From sequence record NC_070873.1: 64,000 nt of DNA, one strand, 5' to 3'. The DNA is from Escherichia phage St11Ph5. Position numbers and translations under genes: made by a program. Positions 6,010 to 36,263 of this stretch are shown one piece after another; the first letter of the stretch is position 1; every line of letters begins with the position of its first letter. The notes under the pieces are model-generated. The model was not told where the DNA came from. It did not search any database and saw only the letters and a list, made by a program, of their open reading frames with translations.

Positions 6010-6828
6010 ATGTACTCATCTATTGAACATCAGAAGCGACTTGAAATCCTTTTCAACAAAAATCAATTACTCCCTCGCATGAGGAAGGAATTCGAGGACT
6101 CCGAAGAAATTGACTTTAAAGCTTTTGCTGCCTATTTAGAAATTGATTATAAGCTGCTCATTGATGCAATGGTGCAGATTGCCCTACATAAACGTGCTGA
6201 CATCCAAACTATGATTGGCTCTCTCATGAGTCACTCAGATGATGCTCAGTACATCGCTGACTGTCTGTATAAGATGGCAGAGAATGACTGCTTCAACTAT
6301 GACCCTACCATCGACAAGTTTGGTGTTATTTATGAGATTAGTGAAGATGTACAGATGGAACTGGAAGCATTCCAGTATCCATTACCTATCGTAAGTGCTC
6401 CTAAACCTGTTAAGTGTAACCGTGATACTGGTTACTACGAGAGCAGAGGTAGCATCATCCTCAAGAAGAACCATCATGAGATGGATGTCTGTCTTGACCA
6501 CATCAACCGCATGAATAACCAACGTCTCTGTATTAACTGGGACGTTGCTAACTATGTAAAAGACTCTCGTCCTAACATGGATAAACCTAAAGAAGGTGAA
6601 ACCCGTCAGGACTATGAGAAACGTGTTAAAGCCTTTGAGAAGTACAGTCGTACAGCTAAGGAAGTAATGGAGTTAGTGACCAAAGAAGGTAATAACTTCT
6701 CTTTGGCTCACAAATACGACAAGCGTGGGCGTACCTATGCCTGTGGCTACCACATCAACTATCAGGGAACCAGTTACAACAAAGCTGTACTGGAGTTCGC
6801 TGATAAGGAGTTAGTAAATGAAGACTAA
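6010..6828 (+). CDS. phage RNA polymerase II, N-terminal-type subunit (T7-like RNAP, split; 272 aa)
   Basis: YDKRGRTYACGYHINYQG resembles the T7 RNAP DWRGRVY...NPQG region; followed by the catalytic subunit. Confidence 0.7.
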   Translation: MYSSIEHQKRLEILFNKNQLLPRMRKEFEDSEEIDFKAFAAYLEIDYKLLIDAMVQIALHKRADIQTMIGSLMSHSDDAQYIADCLYKMAENDCFNYDPTIDKFGVIYEISEDVQMELEAFQYPLPIVSAPKPVKCNRDTGYYESRGSIILKKNHHEMDVCLDHINRMNNQRLCINWDVANYVKDSRPNMDKPKEGETRQDYEKRVKAFEKYSRTAKEVMELVTKEGNNFSLAHKYDKRGRTYACGYHINYQGTSYNKAVLEFADKELVNED

Positions 6829-19641: not shown

Positions 19642-21690
19642 ATGAAAATCGAACTGATTTCTATCATCGCACTGGCAGTTGACAGTCGTAATCTTACATT
19701 GTGGAAGCCTGATGGCTCCACGATTGTATATCCTCAGAGCGACCCACGGGTTGCTCGCATTGTATCTGAAGCACAAACCAAAGGTTTGGGAACTACTAAA
19801 GACCAGATAGAAGTAAACATTGCACCAGAAGCAAACCTGCGTACTGAATATCTGGAAGCAGAGAAGAACACTAATGGATTCGTCCGTTTCTTCAAGGTAG
19901 CTAAAGCTAAACTTAAAGAGTTCTTCCAGGATGGTACAGGTATCCAACCTGCACACATAGTCTCAGATATTAAGCTGGGTAATCCTACTAAGACATTAGT
20001 ATCTAAAGCCATGGATACCTTCCTGGCTGTGCAGGCTAATGAACCAGAAGTAACTGTAACAGACGGTTGCTACGACAGACGTGACAATCTGATGTGGGTT
20101 ACTGGCTGGGATAAGGACCATAACCATCCTGCACTGGTTCGCTTTATTAACGATGTATTGTATTGGGGTTATGCCCATACCGACCGTATTCTTGCACAAG
20201 AGTGGCCTATTGCAATCCGTGCAGTATCCGATGATGAAATGAGTGAGTTTGCTAAACAAGCTAAGCACATCAAAGGAGTACACATTGTATTTACCAGTCG
20301 TGATGTAACTCCATTTCCTTACGTAGAAGTAGCTAAAACTACGAACCAGGATAAACTGGCTGCTGCTTCTGAGAAGTTGGCTGCATTGGGGGCTATTAGC
20401 ACCGATGACGCTAACTTCCACACTGAAGTGAAAGAAGACGAAGTGGTTGTTGCTGTTACCAACAATGGGGTTATTCCTGGAGTTGAAAACCTGCATCGTC
20501 ACTTACGTCAGTCTGCCAAGCTGAAAGACTACAAGGGCTTTACTAAGTTCCTTGAGCGTCTGGCTCCGGTTATTAAAGACCGTCTGCACTCAGTAGAAGA
20601 CCTGATGAAGTTCATGGAGACTGCTGAATTACCTATTGCTGATGATGGTTCAATCCTGTTCCTCAAACGTCTTCAGTATAAAGACAAAGAAAATGGTAAA
20701 CGTGTATTCGTTGACTGTCACTCAGGTAACATTCGTCAGTGGGTAGGCTGCAAAGTGCAGGTACGTGAAGACCTGGTAGACCCTGACCGTCGTCAGGACT
20801 GCTCTAATGGTCTACACGTAGCATCCATGAGCTATATCCGTAGCTTCGGTGGTAACGTAACTATCCTTGGTAAAGTAGCACCAGAAGATGTATTTGCTGT
20901 TCCTCAGTACAGCACCAATAAGATGCGTGTATCTGCATATCATATTATTGCTGAACTACCAGAAGAGGAACGTAATAACGTTAACAACGGTATCTATCTG
21001 TCTAAGACAGAAGTAGGTAAGAAATTGCTTAACGATGCTATCGTTGGGAACCATAGTTCACCCACCACACTTATTATGGTTGGTGGTCATCGTGGAACTA
21101 ACCTCAAATACACCAATCTCACATCTGGTTCTGTAGAACAATTCCGTACAATTGCTAGTAAAGAAGCACTGAACATGGAAGAGTCACTGAATGAAGCTGT
21201 AGCTGCTGAACCAGTGAAGGCTACTGACCTTAAACCTGTTATTAAGAAGGCTCCTACTGTGAAAGAACAAATCCAGGAACTGGTCAAAGAGTTCCTTAGT
21301 GCAACAACACCGGAAGATAAGTTAGCTGCTGCTGACCTTCTGGTAGAACTGCGTTCCAAAGCCAGAAAGCCTTGGGGTGCATTCGATGTAGGTAGTGATG
21401 TAGTAGCTAAGATTGCTGATGTACGTGCAACCTATACAGCTAAACCTATTGGTAAACCTAAAGCTGTTAAGCAGGATAAGACAGTTAAACCCACTAAATC
21501 TAAGCCTGCTATTAATGGTACTAATGCCAATATCATCAGAGGTTATCTAGCAGATAGTGGTATGTCCGATTATCAGAAAGCCCACTCCATTCATGACCTG
21601 AAACGTGCAGCTAAGAAGTCATACGCTGCTATGGGTCTTACTGAAGAAGAGTGCAAAGCCATTGATAAACTGAAGCACCATCTTAAGTAA
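19642..21690 (+). CDS. rIIB-like protein (682 aa)
   Basis: Called mainly by synteny directly after the rIIA-like gene. Confidence 0.45.
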   Translation: MKIELISIIALAVDSRNLTLWKPDGSTIVYPQSDPRVARIVSEAQTKGLGTTKDQIEVNIAPEANLRTEYLEAEKNTNGFVRFFKVAKAKLKEFFQDGTGIQPAHIVSDIKLGNPTKTLVSKAMDTFLAVQANEPEVTVTDGCYDRRDNLMWVTGWDKDHNHPALVRFINDVLYWGYAHTDRILAQEWPIAIRAVSDDEMSEFAKQAKHIKGVHIVFTSRDVTPFPYVEVAKTTNQDKLAAASEKLAALGAISTDDANFHTEVKEDEVVVAVTNNGVIPGVENLHRHLRQSAKLKDYKGFTKFLERLAPVIKDRLHSVEDLMKFMETAELPIADDGSILFLKRLQYKDKENGKRVFVDCHSGNIRQWVGCKVQVREDLVDPDRRQDCSNGLHVASMSYIRSFGGNVTILGKVAPEDVFAVPQYSTNKMRVSAYHIIAELPEEERNNVNNGIYLSKTEVGKKLLNDAIVGNHSSPTTLIMVGGHRGTNLKYTNLTSGSVEQFRTIASKEALNMEESLNEAVAAEPVKATDLKPVIKKAPTVKEQIQELVKEFLSATTPEDKLAAADLLVELRSKARKPWGAFDVGSDVVAKIADVRATYTAKPIGKPKAVKQDKTVKPTKSKPAINGTNANIIRGYLADSGMSDYQKAHSIHDLKRAAKKSYAAMGLTEEECKAIDKLKHHLK

Positions 21691-30955: not shown

Positions 30956-31708
30956 ATGTCCGAAGTAATTCCCAATGATATGAACACTCAGCTAATCCTG
31001 ATTGCAGGATTCTCAGCGAGTGGTAAATCAGCATCACTGCGTAACATCCGGAACCAGGAACGCTGGCTCTATCTGAATACTGAAGCAGGTAAACGTCTGC
31101 CTTTTCGTAACAAGTTCAATACCTATAACATTGAAGACCCTTACCAAATCTGGGAAGCATTTGATGTTGCATCTCCTGGTGGAGAAATGGCAGATGATGT
31201 TGATGGTATCATCATTGACTCAGCAACCTTTATGATGGATATGCTGGAATCCCAGTACGTATTGCCTTCTGCAAATACGCAAAAGGCATGGGGTGACTTT
31301 GCACAGTTCTTTAAGATACTGCTGCAACAAAAAGTCGTTAAGTTTGGTAAGCCAGTAATCATTACTGCCCATGCTAAAGACGAACTTGATGAAGCTGCTG
31401 GTGTAATGAAAACATTCATCCCAGTGAAAGGTTCTCTGAAGAATAACGGGCTTGAAGCCTACTTCTCTACAGTGGTTTACGCAGAACGTGTAGACATTAA
31501 AGAACTGGAGAAGTACGGAAACAAGATGCTTGAAATTACGGAAGAAGAACGTGACTTAGGGTATAAGCACGTATTCCAGACCCGTCCAACTAAGAAGTCG
31601 GTCGGTAAACGACTTCGTTCTCCAATGGGTATGTTCGATAAGTCCGAGACTTACATTGATAACGATGCCCAAAAACTCTTAGACCATCTGGCTGAATACT
31701 ACGCTTAA
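30956..31708 (+). CDS. P-loop ATPase, RecA-fold (AAA_24/Sak4-like) (250 aa)
   Basis: Walker A GFSASGKS, Walker B IIIDSATF. Confidence 0.5.
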   Translation: MSEVIPNDMNTQLILIAGFSASGKSASLRNIRNQERWLYLNTEAGKRLPFRNKFNTYNIEDPYQIWEAFDVASPGGEMADDVDGIIIDSATFMMDMLESQYVLPSANTQKAWGDFAQFFKILLQQKVVKFGKPVIITAHAKDELDEAAGVMKTFIPVKGSLKNNGLEAYFSTVVYAERVDIKELEKYGNKMLEITEEERDLGYKHVFQTRPTKKSVGKRLRSPMGMFDKSETYIDNDAQKLLDHLAEYYA

Positions 31709-31747
31709 GCGTTTGCCTGGTTGTTAATCACTTATTAGGAAAATCAT

Positions 31748-32551
31748 ATGTCATTGTTCAGTAATCTGAAAGAAAAAACCAAAAACGTTGAAGCTGTTAA
31801 AGACTCCCTTGGTGGTGGTGGCTTCGGTGCAAAAGAAACCGATATCTACACTGGTACTGTAAAAGTAGCTTACGTAGGCAAAGCTGACTCTGGTGCAGAT
31901 TGGATGCAGTTAATCATTGAAGACCTGAAGAACTCTGATGGCGTACCTGCTGGTGAGTTCCGTGCTCAGGTGTACTTCACTTCTGGTAATGCTAAAGGCA
32001 ACAAGCCGACTTACGAGAAGAACGGTAAAGAGTACTTCTTGCCTGGCTACACTGTCATTAACGACATGATGCTGATGGCTACCGGTACTGAACTGCCTGA
32101 AGCTGACTTCGAAGAGAAGATTGTTAAAGTCTATGACTTCGATGCTAAAGCAGAAGTTAATAAATCCGTCATGGTTCCGGTTGACCTGGTAGGTCAGACT
32201 GTTACCTTCGCTCTGGAAAAGGTTCTGGAATCCAAGCAGGTTAAAGGTGACAACGGTTACGTTGACTCCGGTGAAACTCGTGAAGTAAACGAGATTCAGA
32301 AAGTGTTTCATCCGGAACTGTTGGTCACAGTCGTCGAAGGTCAGGAAGCAGAGAAGGCTGAGAAAGAACTGACCCCAGAACTGGCTGTATTCTATGCAGC
32401 ATGGCTGGAAAAGAACAAAGGCAAGACTCGTGACAAGACTAAGAGTTCTGCTGGTGGTAATGGTAAAGGTGGCTTACCTCCTAAACCAGGTGCAGGTGCT
32501 GGCACAGGTACTGCTCCTGCTGGTGGTAAATCACTGTTCGGTAAACGTTAA
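31748..32551 (+). CDS. single-stranded DNA-binding protein candidate (N4 SSB-like size/position; 267 aa)
   Basis: Position in replication module, about 265 aa, Gly/Pro/Ala-rich flexible C-terminal tail; no canonical OB motif recognised by eye. Confidence 0.4.
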   Translation: MSLFSNLKEKTKNVEAVKDSLGGGGFGAKETDIYTGTVKVAYVGKADSGADWMQLIIEDLKNSDGVPAGEFRAQVYFTSGNAKGNKPTYEKNGKEYFLPGYTVINDMMLMATGTELPEADFEEKIVKVYDFDAKAEVNKSVMVPVDLVGQTVTFALEKVLESKQVKGDNGYVDSGETREVNEIQKVFHPELLVTVVEGQEAEKAEKELTPELAVFYAAWLEKNKGKTRDKTKSSAGGNGKGGLPPKPGAGAGTGTAPAGGKSLFGKR

Positions 32552-33105
32552 TGAAAATCCCAATTGTCGGTGCAGACATTAGTCTCCGCAATTGGGGTTT
32601 AGCTCGTGGGATGCTGGACATTGAGTCCGGTGTCTTCGAGCAGGTCGAACTTAAACTGGTTCAAACTGAAGTTGACCACAACAAACAAGTTCGAACCAAC
32701 TCCAAAGATATACAAGCCGCTCACGATTTGTTTCTTGGTTGTGAGGAATGGTTACGGTCTGCTAAAGCAGTATTCGTAGAAGTACCAGTAGGCTCTCAGT
32801 CTGCTAACGGTATGAAATCCTATGGAGTATGCGTAGGATTAATCGGTGCATTCCGTGCATTGGGTTGTCCAATCTTTGAAGTATCCCCAATTGAAAACAA
32901 ACTTGCACTGGTCGGTGATAAAACTGCATCCAAAGACACGATGATTCGTGCTGCTCATGCCATTTATCCTGAAGCCAACTGGCTCACTGATAAGAAAGGT
33001 AAACTTCTAAATAAGAATGAGCACTTAGCAGATGCAATCGGTGCAATCCATGCTGGTGTAAATCTCCCAGCTTTCCAGAACCTCATTAAGTTATTAAAGG
33101 CGTAA
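32551..33105 (+). CDS. RuvC-like Holliday junction resolvase (184 aa)
   Basis: N-terminal MKIPIVGADIS and C-terminal LADAIGAIHAG resemble RuvC-fold catalytic segments. Confidence 0.55.
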   Translation: MKIPIVGADISLRNWGLARGMLDIESGVFEQVELKLVQTEVDHNKQVRTNSKDIQAAHDLFLGCEEWLRSAKAVFVEVPVGSQSANGMKSYGVCVGLIGAFRALGCPIFEVSPIENKLALVGDKTASKDTMIRAAHAIYPEANWLTDKKGKLLNKNEHLADAIGAIHAGVNLPAFQNLIKLLKA

Positions 33106-33106
33106 T

Positions 33107-33550
33107 ATGCAAATCATTTTGAACCAGTCCGAAGTAGAAGCTGCTGTACAGGCTTATGTCGATGATCAAATCAATCTTGCTGGTGACATCAATATTGTCA
33201 TCAATGCAGATGGTACTGCCTCCGTTGGTATTAATGAAGAGGTAAGTCATGATGATGACACCCCACCCGTGGTAGAGAAGAAGACTCGTCGTTCTCGTAA
33301 GAACCCACAAGAAGCTAAACATCGTCCGGTAGAACCAGAACCGGAAGAAGTAGCTGAAGAGGTAAAGGTAGAAGAAACCCAGACCTCTACTGGTGGTCAG
33401 AACGAGAGTTCTACGCCGGAACCTGAAGAAGAAGCAGTAACTGAACCAGAAGCACAAGAAGAAGTTGTGCAGGAAGAAGTTAAGGCTGAAGAACCAGCAG
33501 AAAAACCTGCTACTAAGCCTTCACTGTTCGCTGGCCTTAAACGTAGTTAA
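33107..33550 (+). CDS. highly acidic Glu/Pro-rich protein (147 aa)
   Basis: Low-complexity PEPEEE/EEV repeats in the C-terminal two thirds. Confidence 0.5.
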   Translation: MQIILNQSEVEAAVQAYVDDQINLAGDINIVINADGTASVGINEEVSHDDDTPPVVEKKTRRSRKNPQEAKHRPVEPEPEEVAEEVKVEETQTSTGGQNESSTPEPEEEAVTEPEAQEEVVQEEVKAEEPAEKPATKPSLFAGLKRS

Positions 33551-33781
33551 TCTGGTAGGTGGCTCAGAAGCTGCTGCTAGGTGTGGTAGTGTTTATAGTC
33601 CTGATGCTACTACTGGTCAGGATTATAGACGTGTCGGCTCCATACATAGCTTTTATCATCACTGTCATTATCCTGTGGAAATGCAGTGGTAAACACGGTG
33701 GTGACAAGCCGCCAGAGTAACAACAACCGAACCAGTGTGCAGGAATACTCTCCCCTGTGCATTGGTTCAACTGAGGCCAAT

Positions 33782-33952
33782 ATGAACAAATTTACTATTC
33801 ACTGGTTTAATGGAAAGGTTAGTTCTTTCATGGGTGGAGAACCTGCTGAAGGAAAGAAAGCATTTCACATTGAATCAGAAGGCTGCAAAATCTTAGTACC
33901 GTATGTTTGGTATAAAGATGGTGAAGTAGAAGCATTAAAAAAGAGTAGTTAA
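33782..33952 (+). CDS. small hypothetical protein (56 aa; start moved to internal ATG)
   Basis: GAGG upstream of ATG 33782; the N-terminal part of the listed ORF lies in a likely non-coding stretch. Confidence 0.3.
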   Translation: MNKFTIHWFNGKVSSFMGGEPAEGKKAFHIESEGCKILVPYVWYKDGEVEALKKSS

Positions 33953-34352
33953 TATCGTGAAGGGTTCTGTTAGAATCCTTTGAGATAGGAACTCCTATCA
34001 TAACCTTTCTTAACTTAATCTTTGCCGTATGGCACTGACGCTAGGGTTTATGCCCATCCGTCAGGTAGACTATTTTAAGAATGGGTTATCACAGCAAATG
34101 TAAAGCAACATTCGGGTTAATCAATGGCCTCTCCCTATAGGGGCCATTTCTGAATCTTAGGCTATATCCCAAAGGTTAGCATCTTTGGGATAAGGCTTCA
34201 GATCCCTTATCAACTAACGCTCATGCTGAGCACAACATTAACCAATAATGTCGGATAGTTCATTACGCTATTCATCCAGCATCGAGATGTTAGGTCTTAC
34301 ATGTAACATAGGGTATAAAGGGAGGACTCGTCCCCTCCCTCCTATTATAATG

Positions 34353-34422
34353 GTCGGGGTAGCACGTAGGCATGTGCAGAAGGTCGCTACTTCTCTCGCT
34401 GGTTCGAATCCAGCCCCTGACC
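34353..34422 (+). tRNA. candidate tRNA (70 nt; anticodon loop reads gt-CGC-ta), no encoded CCA
   Basis: Hand fold: acceptor 34353-59/34415-21 (7 bp, one G-U), D-stem GCAC/GTGC, anticodon stem AGAAG/CTTCT, T-stem GCTGG/CCAGC with TTCGAAT loop; short variable region is atypical. Confidence 0.4.
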
Positions 34423-34878
34423 TACTGACATCCTATCAATGAGTACATTAGGCTAACGTGCGGAGGTTTACACTGTAGCCGGTGTAGGTGGAGAAGACGG
34501 CAGGGTAGCTACCTGTGCTTAGTGTACTCTTTGATAGTTTTCGTAAGCGATTATGCGGTTTTTTAGAAATGAACCAATAACATAAATGCAAACGATGATG
34601 TTGTTCTGATGGCGGCGTAATAGCCTGTAAGTCAGCAAGGTCTTCCTATTCCTTGTAAATAAATTCGGCGCAGTGGCCCGCTGTAATTAATAATGGGCAC
34701 ACAACAGGTAAGAGCATTGGGTAATGTCAGCCTTGGTTCGAAGTCGAAAGACATGCGGTAATACCCAGCCAAAGTTCCAGTGCTCTTTCCGTTGTGGAAA
34801 TGCAAGCACAACAAGTCCAGACGATATCTGAGTGACTATAAAAACAGATGGAGCCAGGTGGAATCCCTGGCAATCAAT

Positions 34879-35270
34879 TCCGGTGTAGGTACTAGTGTCG
34901 TGCACGGCATGAGTGTTCTGGTTCGAGTCCAGACGCCGGAACCAATTACCAGTTGCACGAGATGGCTTGACATGTTCAAGTTTGGACTAAGTGTGACACC
35001 GCTAGATTGGAGGGCTGCTGCGGTAAGCTATAGACTCCAACCGGGGGTTCGAATCCCTCACTGGTAACCAATTCAAAGTAGCATTGCACTAATCCATCCC
35101 GGAGTTCAAAGACCAAACATGGAGCAGTGCTACTTTGAATTAGAAGAATTAAGGTGGGTCTGGTGAAGTAGATAGGGTTCGATTCCCTCCGGTAGAGTAA
35201 TCTACTAGCGTGCTTGGTGCATGAATAAGACTTAATACTGGTGGTTCGATTCCATCCCCCACTACCTATT
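34879..35270 (+). ncRNA. cluster of tRNA-like elements (GGTTCGAnTCC T-arms with acceptor-like 3' ends, two ending A-CCA at 34944 and 35070)
   Basis: Four T-arm motifs at 34917-33, 35043-59, 35173-89, 35240-56; acceptor partners sit 63-124 nt upstream, so canonical cloverleaves could not be completed by hand. Confidence 0.3.
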
Positions 35271-35794
35271 TGAGGTGTAACAGTTAAATCCAGTTGCCGG
35301 AAGTGCTATTCTAGATACGCTGCCAATGTGTGAACGGTAAGGCTGTACAGGACTCGGACTCCCACCTCAAACCAAAGTCGCCAGGTACTTATGGCAAACG
35401 GGTAGTAACGAACTAGTCATTCGTCAAACGCCCAACCTATTATGAGTCAGCAAGAACGCCTTCACTTAAACTTAAACAATATGAAAAGTTTCCGTAGATA
35501 CTATATAGGGGTATGTAGGGGCTACGAAGAAGGAGCCAGTTAAAGTCTGGCATGGCTCGCCTATTAATAGAGAACATAGTCCTGATTGCATTGCACTCTA
35601 AAGACAATGCCGGTGAGACAGTCCGGCACTCTAGTTATTGTAAACATACCCACTGACGAGTGGGTATGAGTATGAGCAGACTATAATGCTCAAATACAGT
35701 TATCTATTATCGGACTATCAATCCTGTTTGCTGGTACAAGCACCGGTGGTAATAGTTAACTGGCCTAACCTCGTTAGCTGCGTTAAAGCTACTA

Positions 35795-35820
35795 AGTCCC
35801 TCTTCGGAGGGACTTTTTTA
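35795..35820 (+). terminator. intrinsic terminator (AGTCCCTC-TTCG-GAGGGACT then TTTTTTA)
   Basis: 8-bp stem, TTCG loop, T-run. Confidence 0.75.
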
Positions 35821-35841
35821 TTTGAAAGTAGGAGAAATACT

Positions 35842-36117
35842 ATGGCTAAATATCGTAAAAAACCTGTTGAGATTGAAGCTTTTCAATGGGACGGTAGTCT
35901 TAATCTGAACAAAGAACCAACTTGGATAGTAGATGCTCTTCATAATGGGGTAGTCTGGTTCTCTGGGAAGGATAATAAATTATGTATCAGAACTCTGGAG
36001 GGTATCTTAACTGCTTCCCCCAATGACTATATTATCCAAGGTATACATGGGGAGCTATATCCGTGTAAACCAGATATATTCCTGGAAACCTATATCAAAT
36101 CAACAACCGTAAGCTGA
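35842..36117 (+). CDS. hypothetical protein (91 aa)
   Basis: ATG after GTAGGAG. Confidence 0.5.
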   Translation: MAKYRKKPVEIEAFQWDGSLNLNKEPTWIVDALHNGVVWFSGKDNKLCIRTLEGILTASPNDYIIQGIHGELYPCKPDIFLETYIKSTTVS

Positions 36118-36263
36118 AACTATGATTGACCTAATTTCTACTCCGTATGCCTATGAGGTAACGGATAACCGAGGACATAAGTACTTGGTATTTGCAGGTA
36201 GCGTAGCCTATAACAACGCAGTCATGTTTAAGTACAAACTCAAACCACTCTATGAGGCTAATA

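Follow-up and report, generated by a model that had tools for sequence, protein, structure and literature searches.

A disordered acidic protein of N4-like phages ends in the terminal peptide of the phage single-stranded DNA-binding protein, suggesting a docking adaptor for recombination

Why would a phage keep, at the end of its replication genes, a small protein that is mostly acidic and disordered? The question is raised by an open reading frame (ORF) at positions 33107-33550 of a 64,000-nucleotide stretch of Escherichia phage St11Ph5 (NC_070873.1), the whole of which we call the window. A first-pass annotation, made from the sequence alone, described the product as a short folded N-terminal region followed by a low-complexity Glu/Pro-rich tail, and proposed that it is a DNA mimic or chaperone-like factor directed at restriction enzymes or nucleoid proteins. 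By sequence comparison the product is an orthologue of phage N4 gp47 (YP_950525; PHROGs 7641, 18842, 27655), and we refer to it as gp47 hereafter. What the first-pass annotation missed is that gp47 ends in a conserved basic-hydrophobic tip, KPSLFAGLKR, common to the termini of the phage's SSB (single-stranded DNA-binding protein), and that it is linked to, and in some phages fused with, a junction resolvase. We find that gp47 is a core protein of the Schitoviridae replication/recombination block, which comprises a primase, a Sak4-like annealase, SSB, a resolvase and gp47, and our results suggest that it is a docking adaptor of this machinery rather than an anti-restriction DNA mimic.

The gene is real. 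It reads from an ATG to a TAA, encoding 147 amino acids (aa) plus the stop; its product matches phrog_7641 (function not known) across residues 1-147 (E 5.3e-70) and phrog_18842 with E 1.9e-12; and 685 homologues are present in the databases, with length variants among close relatives of 145-150 aa that differ by whole codons. The window is a Gamaleyavirus genome (N4-like, Schitoviridae), with 96% identity by megablast of positions 31700-34000 to Escherichia phages ShWW44, ECBP1 and Bp4 and to the G7C group, and the G7C orthologue carries the annotation 'similar to gp47 of N4'. N4 gp47 occupies the same slot after gp46 and has the same three parts; in the Gamaleyavirus protein the hairpin region is shorter, and a strongly basic patch is added. 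We assembled homologues by clustering at 50% identity (21 representatives), by tblastn against phage records (116 records, from Escherichia, Achromobacter, Rhizobium, Erwinia, Salmonella, Pseudomonas, Stenotrophomonas, Klebsiella, Agrobacterium and Xanthomonas phages) and by a profile search (393 proteins), with further alignments A1-A3. The family is annotated "hypothetical protein" throughout.

What kind of protein is it? With a pI of 4.3, 19% Glu and 8% Pro, the window gp47 is the most acidic of the 63 window ORFs of at least 100 aa (-0.143 per residue), and its charge is unevenly distributed. Residues 1-45 have an ordinary composition, free of low complexity; residues 51-75 are net basic (EKKTRRSRKNPQEAKHRPV); residues 76-147 contain 31% Glu and carry a net charge of -16, segment 76-134 being strongly acidic; and the last ~12 residues are net basic again. 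Tandem Repeats Finder detected no tandem DNA repeat in the ORF, and the "PEPEE/EEV-type" pattern noted earlier is thus a compositional bias, not a repeat. An AlphaFold2 model built with a 122-sequence alignment places a helix at residues 7-21 and a beta-hairpin at 28-32/38-42, with predicted local distance difference test (pLDDT) values of 65-88. Residues 44-128 have values below 50 and read as disordered in the model, and beyond this linker confidence climbs to 69-77 over the last ~18 residues. The short folded region and the acidic tail of about 100 residues described at first are both borne out, the former as a predicted domain of ~44 residues and the latter as ~100 disordered and mostly polyanionic residues, in keeping with the disorder and charge-pattern check that had been proposed.

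This three-part plan is common to all homologue sets, which span many Schitoviridae genera. The N-terminal domain follows the pattern MQITLNQxEIExALxxYV, then the hairpin; the linker, rich in Glu, Ala, Pro, Val and Thr, varies in both length and sequence; and the C-terminal peptide [KR]-x-S-L-F-[AGS]-[GN]-L-x-[KR] is kept in 136/138 homologues. The dipeptide [LIM]F falls within the last 16 aa in 136 of the 138, the two exceptions looking truncated or frameshifted, and the last 12 aa are net positive in 132 of 134 homologues. P138, S139 and F141 are invariant in the alignment, with L140 and L144 conserved in at least 90%. Averaged by segment, the column entropy of 120 close relatives is lowest for the N-terminal domain (0.047 bits), followed by the tip (0.075), the basic segment (0.150) and the acidic linker (0.237); domain and tip are 3-5 times more constrained than the linker, which tolerates insertions and deletions and is the fastest-evolving part of the protein. 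Between the window and N4-type isolates, the ten codons of KPSLFAGLKR show six synonymous and zero non-synonymous differences, a pattern that argues for selection on the peptide and not on the DNA. The expectation that the acidic tail would be conserved in related phages holds for its composition, the linker being net negative in all 134 unfused homologues (median -11.5), but not for its sequence. The strongly basic patch is found mainly in the closer relatives of the window, a 12-mer with a net charge of at least +4 occurring in only 32/136 homologues; the idea that this patch is an AT-hook was dropped, an RGRP-like core being present in only 2/136.

Does gp47 then act on host nucleoid proteins or restriction enzymes, as a chaperone or as a polyanionic mimic of DNA? 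Strong acidity is a constant feature of the linker, and disordered acidic tails can mimic single-stranded DNA (ssDNA), as do those of T7 gp2.5 and E. coli SSB, which speaks for such a role. However, the acidic part of gp47 is predicted to be disordered rather than to form a rigid, DNA-like surface, and the best-conserved element of the tail is a basic-hydrophobic peptide rather than the acidic run. The protein shows no similarity to Ocr or ArdA; searches of Pfam and NCBIfam gave only chance-level matches (Menin at E 0.21, and short-chain dehydrogenase models far below cut-offs), a sequence search of the PDB gave nothing significant (RaiA, E 0.6), and a Foldseek search of the model against the PDB returned no neighbour (best E 0.59, to ribosomal protein fragments), the N-terminal domain being small and the model mostly disordered. 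The gene resides in the middle-gene replication/recombination module in all genomes examined, not among early anti-host genes, and it is retained in phages whose hosts differ widely, unlike anti-restriction genes, which tend to be accessory and patchily distributed. We therefore regard this role as very unlikely: the DNA-mimic, anti-restriction, nucleoid-binding or chaperone function first proposed finds no support in family similarity, in the disordered tail or in the location of the gene. No virion association of gp47 has been reported, and the N4 virion paper does not mention the protein (PMC13434306).

A clue to function is the tip itself, which recurs in SSB. The window SSB terminates in GGKSLFGKR and N4SSB in AAKSLFGKK, and the C-terminus takes the form [KRP]-S-L-F-[GAS]-(N)-K-K in 19 annotated genera, in 80 IMG/VR loci and in a set of 62 non-redundant loci, an S-L-F motif lying inside the last 10 residues of 120/120 diverse SSB homologues. 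The SSB N-terminus carries the motif too, in an M-S-L-F-x-x-L form (MSLFGNLK, MSNLFGNLK), in 115 of 120 homologues. The corresponding terminal sequences in the window are MSLFSNLKEK and GGKSLFGKR for SSB and TKPSLFAGLKRS for gp47, and the core of the gp47 tip (SLFAGLK) is closer to the N-terminal than to the C-terminal form of SSB. Eight stop-to-stop frames of at least 40 aa in the window have [ST]LF in their last 14 residues; six are short or antisense, which leaves SSB and gp47 as the only plausible genes. A position-specific scoring matrix (PSSM) made from 78 unique SSB N-terminal peptides and scanned over 38,222 six-frame positions of the window ranked SSB first, an antisense frame in the gene at 19642-21690 second (a spurious match) and the gp47 tip third. 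Among gp47 homologues, the best PSSM match falls in the last 22 residues in 99/136, and the median best score is 6.3, compared with -8.0 in shuffled sequences. We found no earlier description of this shared peptide, or of the resolvase fusions discussed below, in the searched literature.

The tails of the two proteins carry opposite charges. SSB tails are basic and rich in Gly, Ala, Pro and Lys (net positive in 120/120 homologues, median +7), opposite in charge both to the acidic gp47 linkers and to classical SSB tails. The AlphaFold2 model of the window SSB (mean pLDDT 81) has a beta-rich core resembling an oligonucleotide/oligosaccharide-binding (OB) fold at residues 30-230 (pLDDT >90) and a disordered tail at 234-261 with a slight rise in confidence at the C-terminal S-L-F. 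The N-terminal peptide forms a short helix at residues 5-10 (pLDDT ~69) on a floppy Gly-rich tether spanning 17-25, and because it sits on this tether, the model suggests a role in neighbour contact, that is, in cooperativity. The best Foldseek neighbour of the model in the PDB is PrgE of pCF10 (E 8e-4), a weak structural match (TM 0.26-0.47), alongside OB-fold SSBs.

Could the tip instead be a motif for the host sliding clamp (beta, DnaN), tethering both SSB and gp47 to it? A terminal x-x-S-L-F following a disordered linker resembles the bacterial clamp-binding consensus Q-L-[SD]-L-F, and the pocket that receives this motif is conserved across bacteria. Although the L-F is present, the tips of gp47 and SSB lack the defining Gln, position 1 being K, R or P in nearly all of them, and the N-terminal copy in SSB would be atypical for a clamp motif. 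N4 replication is, moreover, described as largely independent of host replisome functions. We consider clamp tethering highly improbable.

Why place the same peptide on two proteins? We infer from these sequences, with about an even chance of being right, that gp47 docks by its SSB-type terminal peptide onto SSB or onto a shared SSB partner, on recombination intermediates. S-L-F-x-x-L-K would be the docking motif, and gp47 would occupy the site otherwise used by the SSB termini. [quoted passage not shown] The other is a shared client of SSB, such as the Sak4-like ATPase or the polymerase. By analogy with HK620, in which Sak4 binds the final six residues of its SSB and needs them for loading and annealing (PMC5928155), we regard the Sak4-like ATPase of the window as a candidate client of the SSB tip. 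Docking at either site would put gp47 on SSB-coated replication/recombination intermediates, and the junction resolvase, encoded next to it and sometimes fused to it, might be brought there along with it. For the polyanionic linker we envisage the part of a flexible, DNA-repelling spacer, which may in addition vie with ssDNA for the cleft of SSB, providing in trans an acidic tail of the kind missing from this SSB family. Mimicry thus survives as a sub-hypothesis, in which the acidic gp47 tail may be an ssDNA mimic toward the phage's own basic-tailed SSB.

The C-terminus of N4SSB also acts in transcription, which raises a different possibility. Binding of ssDNA by N4SSB is dispensable for activating the host sigma-70 RNA polymerase at late promoters, the C-terminal residues are essential, and the target is the conserved C-terminus of the RNA polymerase beta-prime subunit (PMC4496689). 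By this account gp47 would bind beta-prime as N4SSB does and modulate late transcription, as a timer or competitor or else as a co-activator, coupling late expression to recombination and resolution; retention of the S-L-F tip in both SSB and gp47 of phages of alpha-, beta- and gammaproteobacteria fits a conserved host target of this kind. However, the identity of the essential N4SSB residues with S-L-F is an assumption, the gp47 tip is nearer to the N-terminal peptide of SSB (S-L-F-x-N-L-K) than to the C-terminal one, and there is nothing to connect RNA polymerase with a junction resolvase that some phages fuse to gp47. The searched literature contains no statement on, or experiment with, gp47 of N4-like phages, and neither the CRISPRi-ART paper nor the N4 virion paper mentions it; the "gp47" of a preprint on Thoeris in Pseudomonas N4-like phages is a tail-fibre chaperone under a different numbering and not this protein. 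We consider a role in late transcription unlikely. A broader version, to which we also assign a low probability, would make S-L-F-x-x-L-K the common plug of an interaction hub, with gp47 as a beta-prime decoy or co-activator that does not bind DNA, times the late switch and links it to resolving recombination intermediates, while also providing in trans the acidic, ssDNA-mimicking tail missing from these SSBs.

The company that gp47 keeps provides a second line of evidence. As the first-pass annotation had noted, the gene lies downstream of a RuvC-like gene at the end of the replication block, and the window preserves the order of N4 genes 43-47: primase, Sak4-like ATPase, SSB, RuvC-like resolvase, gp47. 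In every Schitoviridae genome examined gp47 is found within the Sak4-SSB-resolvase recombination module, and in the window and 19 annotated genera it directly follows the junction resolvase. We extended this survey by scanning IMG/VR with an SSB profile and searching the loci with hidden Markov models (HMMs) for the gp47 N-terminal domain and two resolvase types; 70 loci with at least 1.5 kb downstream of SSB were informative. A gp47-like ORF follows the resolvase in all 70, 68 of them recognised by HMM and the remaining two, divergent ORFs (L069 5331-5900 and L103 5423-5725), by position, N-terminal pattern and tip. The resolvase was typed by PHROG profiles and GenBank annotation, Pfam RusA and RuvC models being sub-threshold on these proteins (E 0.03-0.04). 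It is of the N4 gp46 RuvC-like type in 45 loci (including L069 and L103), of the divergent RuvC-like subfamily phrog_1770 in 6, and RusA-like in 19, of which 11 are single fused RusA-gp47 ORFs.

Further RusA-gp47 fusions occur in Rhizobium phages RHph_X3_15 and RHph_Y38, Sinorhizobium phage ort11, Pseudomonas phage ZC03 and two other homologues (P0213, P0236), with PHROG matches placing RusA at approximately residues 1-130 and the gp47 families from ~132 to the end. Where the genes are separate, the gap between resolvase and gp47 is -26 to +15 nucleotides (nt) in 13/15 annotated relatives. In the window, the TAA stop of gp46 (33103-33105) sits one base ahead of the gp47 ATG, within the spacer between that start codon and its Shine-Dalgarno-like AAGG, and the two genes are therefore suggested to be translationally coupled. 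In these loci gp47 thus holds its slot whichever resolvase fold precedes it, and would appear to work when covalently joined to one.

Such an arrangement might also mean that gp47 is a resolvase accessory acting through its N-terminal domain, by dimerising or by binding junction DNA, with the tail and tip secondary (for solubility or autoinhibition) and unrelated to SSB. The strict position downstream of the resolvase, with overlapping or close start and stop codons, the 11 natural fusions, and the fact that the N-terminal domain is the most conserved part of gp47 are all as this account would have it. Yet the tip is nearly as conserved as the domain and matches the SSB termini beyond chance, it is improbable that one small domain could bind RuvC-like as well as RusA-like folds, and no known resolvase accessory domain resembles the gp47 N-terminal domain in PDB sequence and fold searches. 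We judge the accessory role quite unlikely. Nor was a RusA or RuvC catalytic domain recognised in the window protein. A weak match to the 'RusA-like' phrog_14238 (E 6.6e-4) was rejected as evidence of nuclease homology because it falls on profile positions 145-263, where the fusion proteins of that PHROG have their gp47 moiety and not their nuclease domain.

Several observations weigh against docking through the tip. Adjacency to the resolvase is weak on its own because synteny in the family extends over the entire replication block; retention of gp47 after two unrelated resolvase folds argues against a specific contact between its N-terminal domain and the resolvase; and all observed fusions involve RusA, none RuvC. 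In the model, the N-terminal domain has no recognisable fold neighbour. Covariation between the SSB and gp47 tips across 62 loci was not significant (p 0.03-0.24, without phylogenetic correction), in a test that has little power because the motif is almost invariant. Classical SSB tips end in Phe, whereas the Phe of gp47 is 6-13 residues from the C-terminus in many homologues; in the window protein it is 6 residues from the end with basic flanks, unlike the acidic flank of a classical SSB C-terminus. The disordered linker typical of SSB-type docking tails is present in gp47, as judged by pLDDT and fast evolution.

N4 itself provides a last complication. The annotated C-terminus of gp47 in the N4 reference (NC_008720; L006 5679-6113) is out of frame and ends in ...KKYRKKRLKNQYKPNLLCLQV, while another frame reads ...EVQEEEAKEPVQAKPSLFAGLKR followed by a stop, with a run of A near locus position 6050. 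The Enquatrovirus isolates 3HA13, VEc25 and AL25 have GAAGAAGAAAAAGAAG, whose A run is one longer than that of N4 (five against four) and brings back the conserved tip. From the sequences, the N4 reference either contains a sequencing error or represents a natural laboratory mutant without the tip, and the 1-nt deletion, if real, implies that the tip is dispensable for laboratory growth.

Table 1. Features of the gp47 locus in the window
Feature	Position	Strand	Evidence
Sak4-like RecA-family annealing ATPase (N4 gp44 orthologue)	30956..31708	+	phrog_124, E 1.2e-49; Pfam AAA_24
SSB (N4 gp45/N4SSB orthologue)	31748..32551	+	phrog_743, E 3.6e-88
SSB N-terminal peptide MSLFSNLKEK	31748-31777	+	conservation of termini
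SSB C-terminal tip KSLFGKR	32528-32548	+	conservation of termini
RuvC-like junction resolvase (N4 gp46 orthologue)	32551..33105	+	phrog_159, E 1.9e-42; annotations of relatives
AAGG, Shine-Dalgarno-like	33097..33100	+	read from sequence; 6 nt before gp47 ATG
gp47 orthologue, coding sequence	33107..33550	+	ORF list, phrog_7641, G7C annotation, homologues
gp47 N-terminal folded domain, aa 1-44 (predicted)	33107..33238	+	AlphaFold2; family-wide conservation (alignments A1-A3)
gp47 proximal disordered segment with basic patch, aa 45-75, EKKTRRSRKNPQEAKHRPV (predicted)	33239..33331	+	charge profile, pLDDT <50
gp47 polyanionic disordered linker, aa 76-134, Glu/Pro/Val/Ala-rich (predicted)	33332..33508	+	charge, pLDDT <50
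gp47 conserved C-terminal tip ATKPSLFAGLKRS, bearing the S-L-F-x-x-L-K peptide	33509..33547	+	conservation, entropy, PSSM

The features of the window locus are listed in Table 1. The first-pass annotation placed gp47 just before a structured-RNA island; the island does not follow directly, two small ORFs (33559-33720 and 33782-33952) lying in between. The first of these, on the + strand, encodes 53 aa with a long hydrophobic stretch, a predicted membrane protein matching phrog_19025 (E 5e-9), and a small hydrophobic ORF also follows gp47 in N4 (unannotated), in Pylas (gp62, with one transmembrane domain) and in loci L069, L080, L093 and L096. In G7C, an HNH endonuclease gene, gp47.1 (L002 3182-3679), lies between gp47 and the downstream small ORF, and because the window and its closest relatives have no ORF of that size there, the comparison suggests a mobile insertion. 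The supposed island, 33950-35700, is a stretch poor in ORFs. A scan of 33400-36200 with ARAGORN predicts a single tRNA-like gene there (tRNA-Ala(cgc), 34352-34423), while Rfam gives nothing at gathering score, and relatives annotate 2-7 tRNAs at the corresponding place.

Some resolvase loci depart from the common pattern. Resolvases of the phrog_1770 clade (L080 4702-5178, L093 4729-5235 and L096 4436-4909) start with MLYLGIDPGFTG, and the same three metagenomic Schitoviridae loci have variant tips, SSB ending in ...KKKLFG and gp47 in ...KSIFSK. In Agrobacterium phage OLIVR1 (L021), the RuvC-like resolvase is split into gp80 (2364-2801) and gp81 (2831-2995), the latter being the conserved C-terminal end of the resolvase (...NEHLADAIAAIHAG...), with gp47 still directly after; the split reflects a frameshift, a pseudogene or a sequencing error. 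Two database names in the family are misleading: a gp47 homologue (P0244) is called 'outer membrane biosynthesis protein TonB', from its Pro/Glu/Lys-rich linker, and the UniRef cluster of Zuri gp47 (P0143) is called 'Holliday junction resolvase', a name inherited from fusion proteins. An antisense ORF of 123 aa at 33086-33457 (-), rich in Phe, Leu and Arg, was rejected as spurious, being a mirror of the GAA-rich coding strand without database support.

N4-like phages are a large and widely isolated family of therapeutic interest, whose late gene expression depends on the SSB C-terminus. That a second universally conserved Schitoviridae protein of uncharacterised function ends in the peptide of SSB turns a "hypothetical protein" into a specific and testable hypothesis. 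If docking occurs, gp47 could reveal a site that organises replication, recombination and late transcription, and would bear on how the C-terminus of N4SSB works, while the natural RusA-gp47 fusions suggest how junction resolvases reach SSB-coated DNA. Should it not occur, gp47 would simply be a well-described, conserved, disordered acidic protein.

How does this arrangement compare with known systems? We see its closest functional analogues in the tails of T7 gp2.5 and gp4 and in the linker and tip of E. coli SSB. In T7, SSB (gp2.5) and the helicase-primase (gp4) share flexible tails with a Phe-containing docking peptide for a common partner, and E. coli SSB combines a linker with a DDDIPF tip, its acidic disordered tail being able to compete with ssDNA. 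The likeness lies in two replisome proteins with a flexible tail that ends in a Phe-containing peptide; in the N4 group, by contrast, the tip is basic-hydrophobic (KxSLFxxLK) instead of acidic, and one polypeptide bears the acidic tail, another the DNA-binding core. Within that group, N4SSB (gp45) shares with gp47 the S-L-F peptide, its basic flanks and its place at the end of a disordered tail, and differs in its core, which is OB-like and binds ssDNA, and in its Gly/Ala/Pro/Lys tail, which is basic, where gp47 has an unrelated domain of ~44 aa and an acidic tail. PrgE of pCF10 and PRD1 P12 appear close as well, with a short terminal peptide on a flexible tether and, in P12, a conserved basic tip, but their tails act within one protein species, whereas here a second protein, gp47, bears the peptide. 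In HK620 the Sak4 gene likewise adjoins the SSB gene, yet the SSB is of the classical bacterial type with an acidic NDYPPF tip, and there is no gp47-like third protein. Ocr and ArdA, folded rigid mimics of B-DNA encoded by early or accessory genes, share with gp47 a strong net negative charge, whereas the acidic part of gp47 is predicted to be disordered, has no homology to them and belongs to a core gene of the recombination module. A further difference from T7, E. coli SSB, PrgE and P12 is that in the gp47 group the peptide occurs three times, at the N-terminus of SSB, at the C-terminus of SSB and at the C-terminus of gp47.

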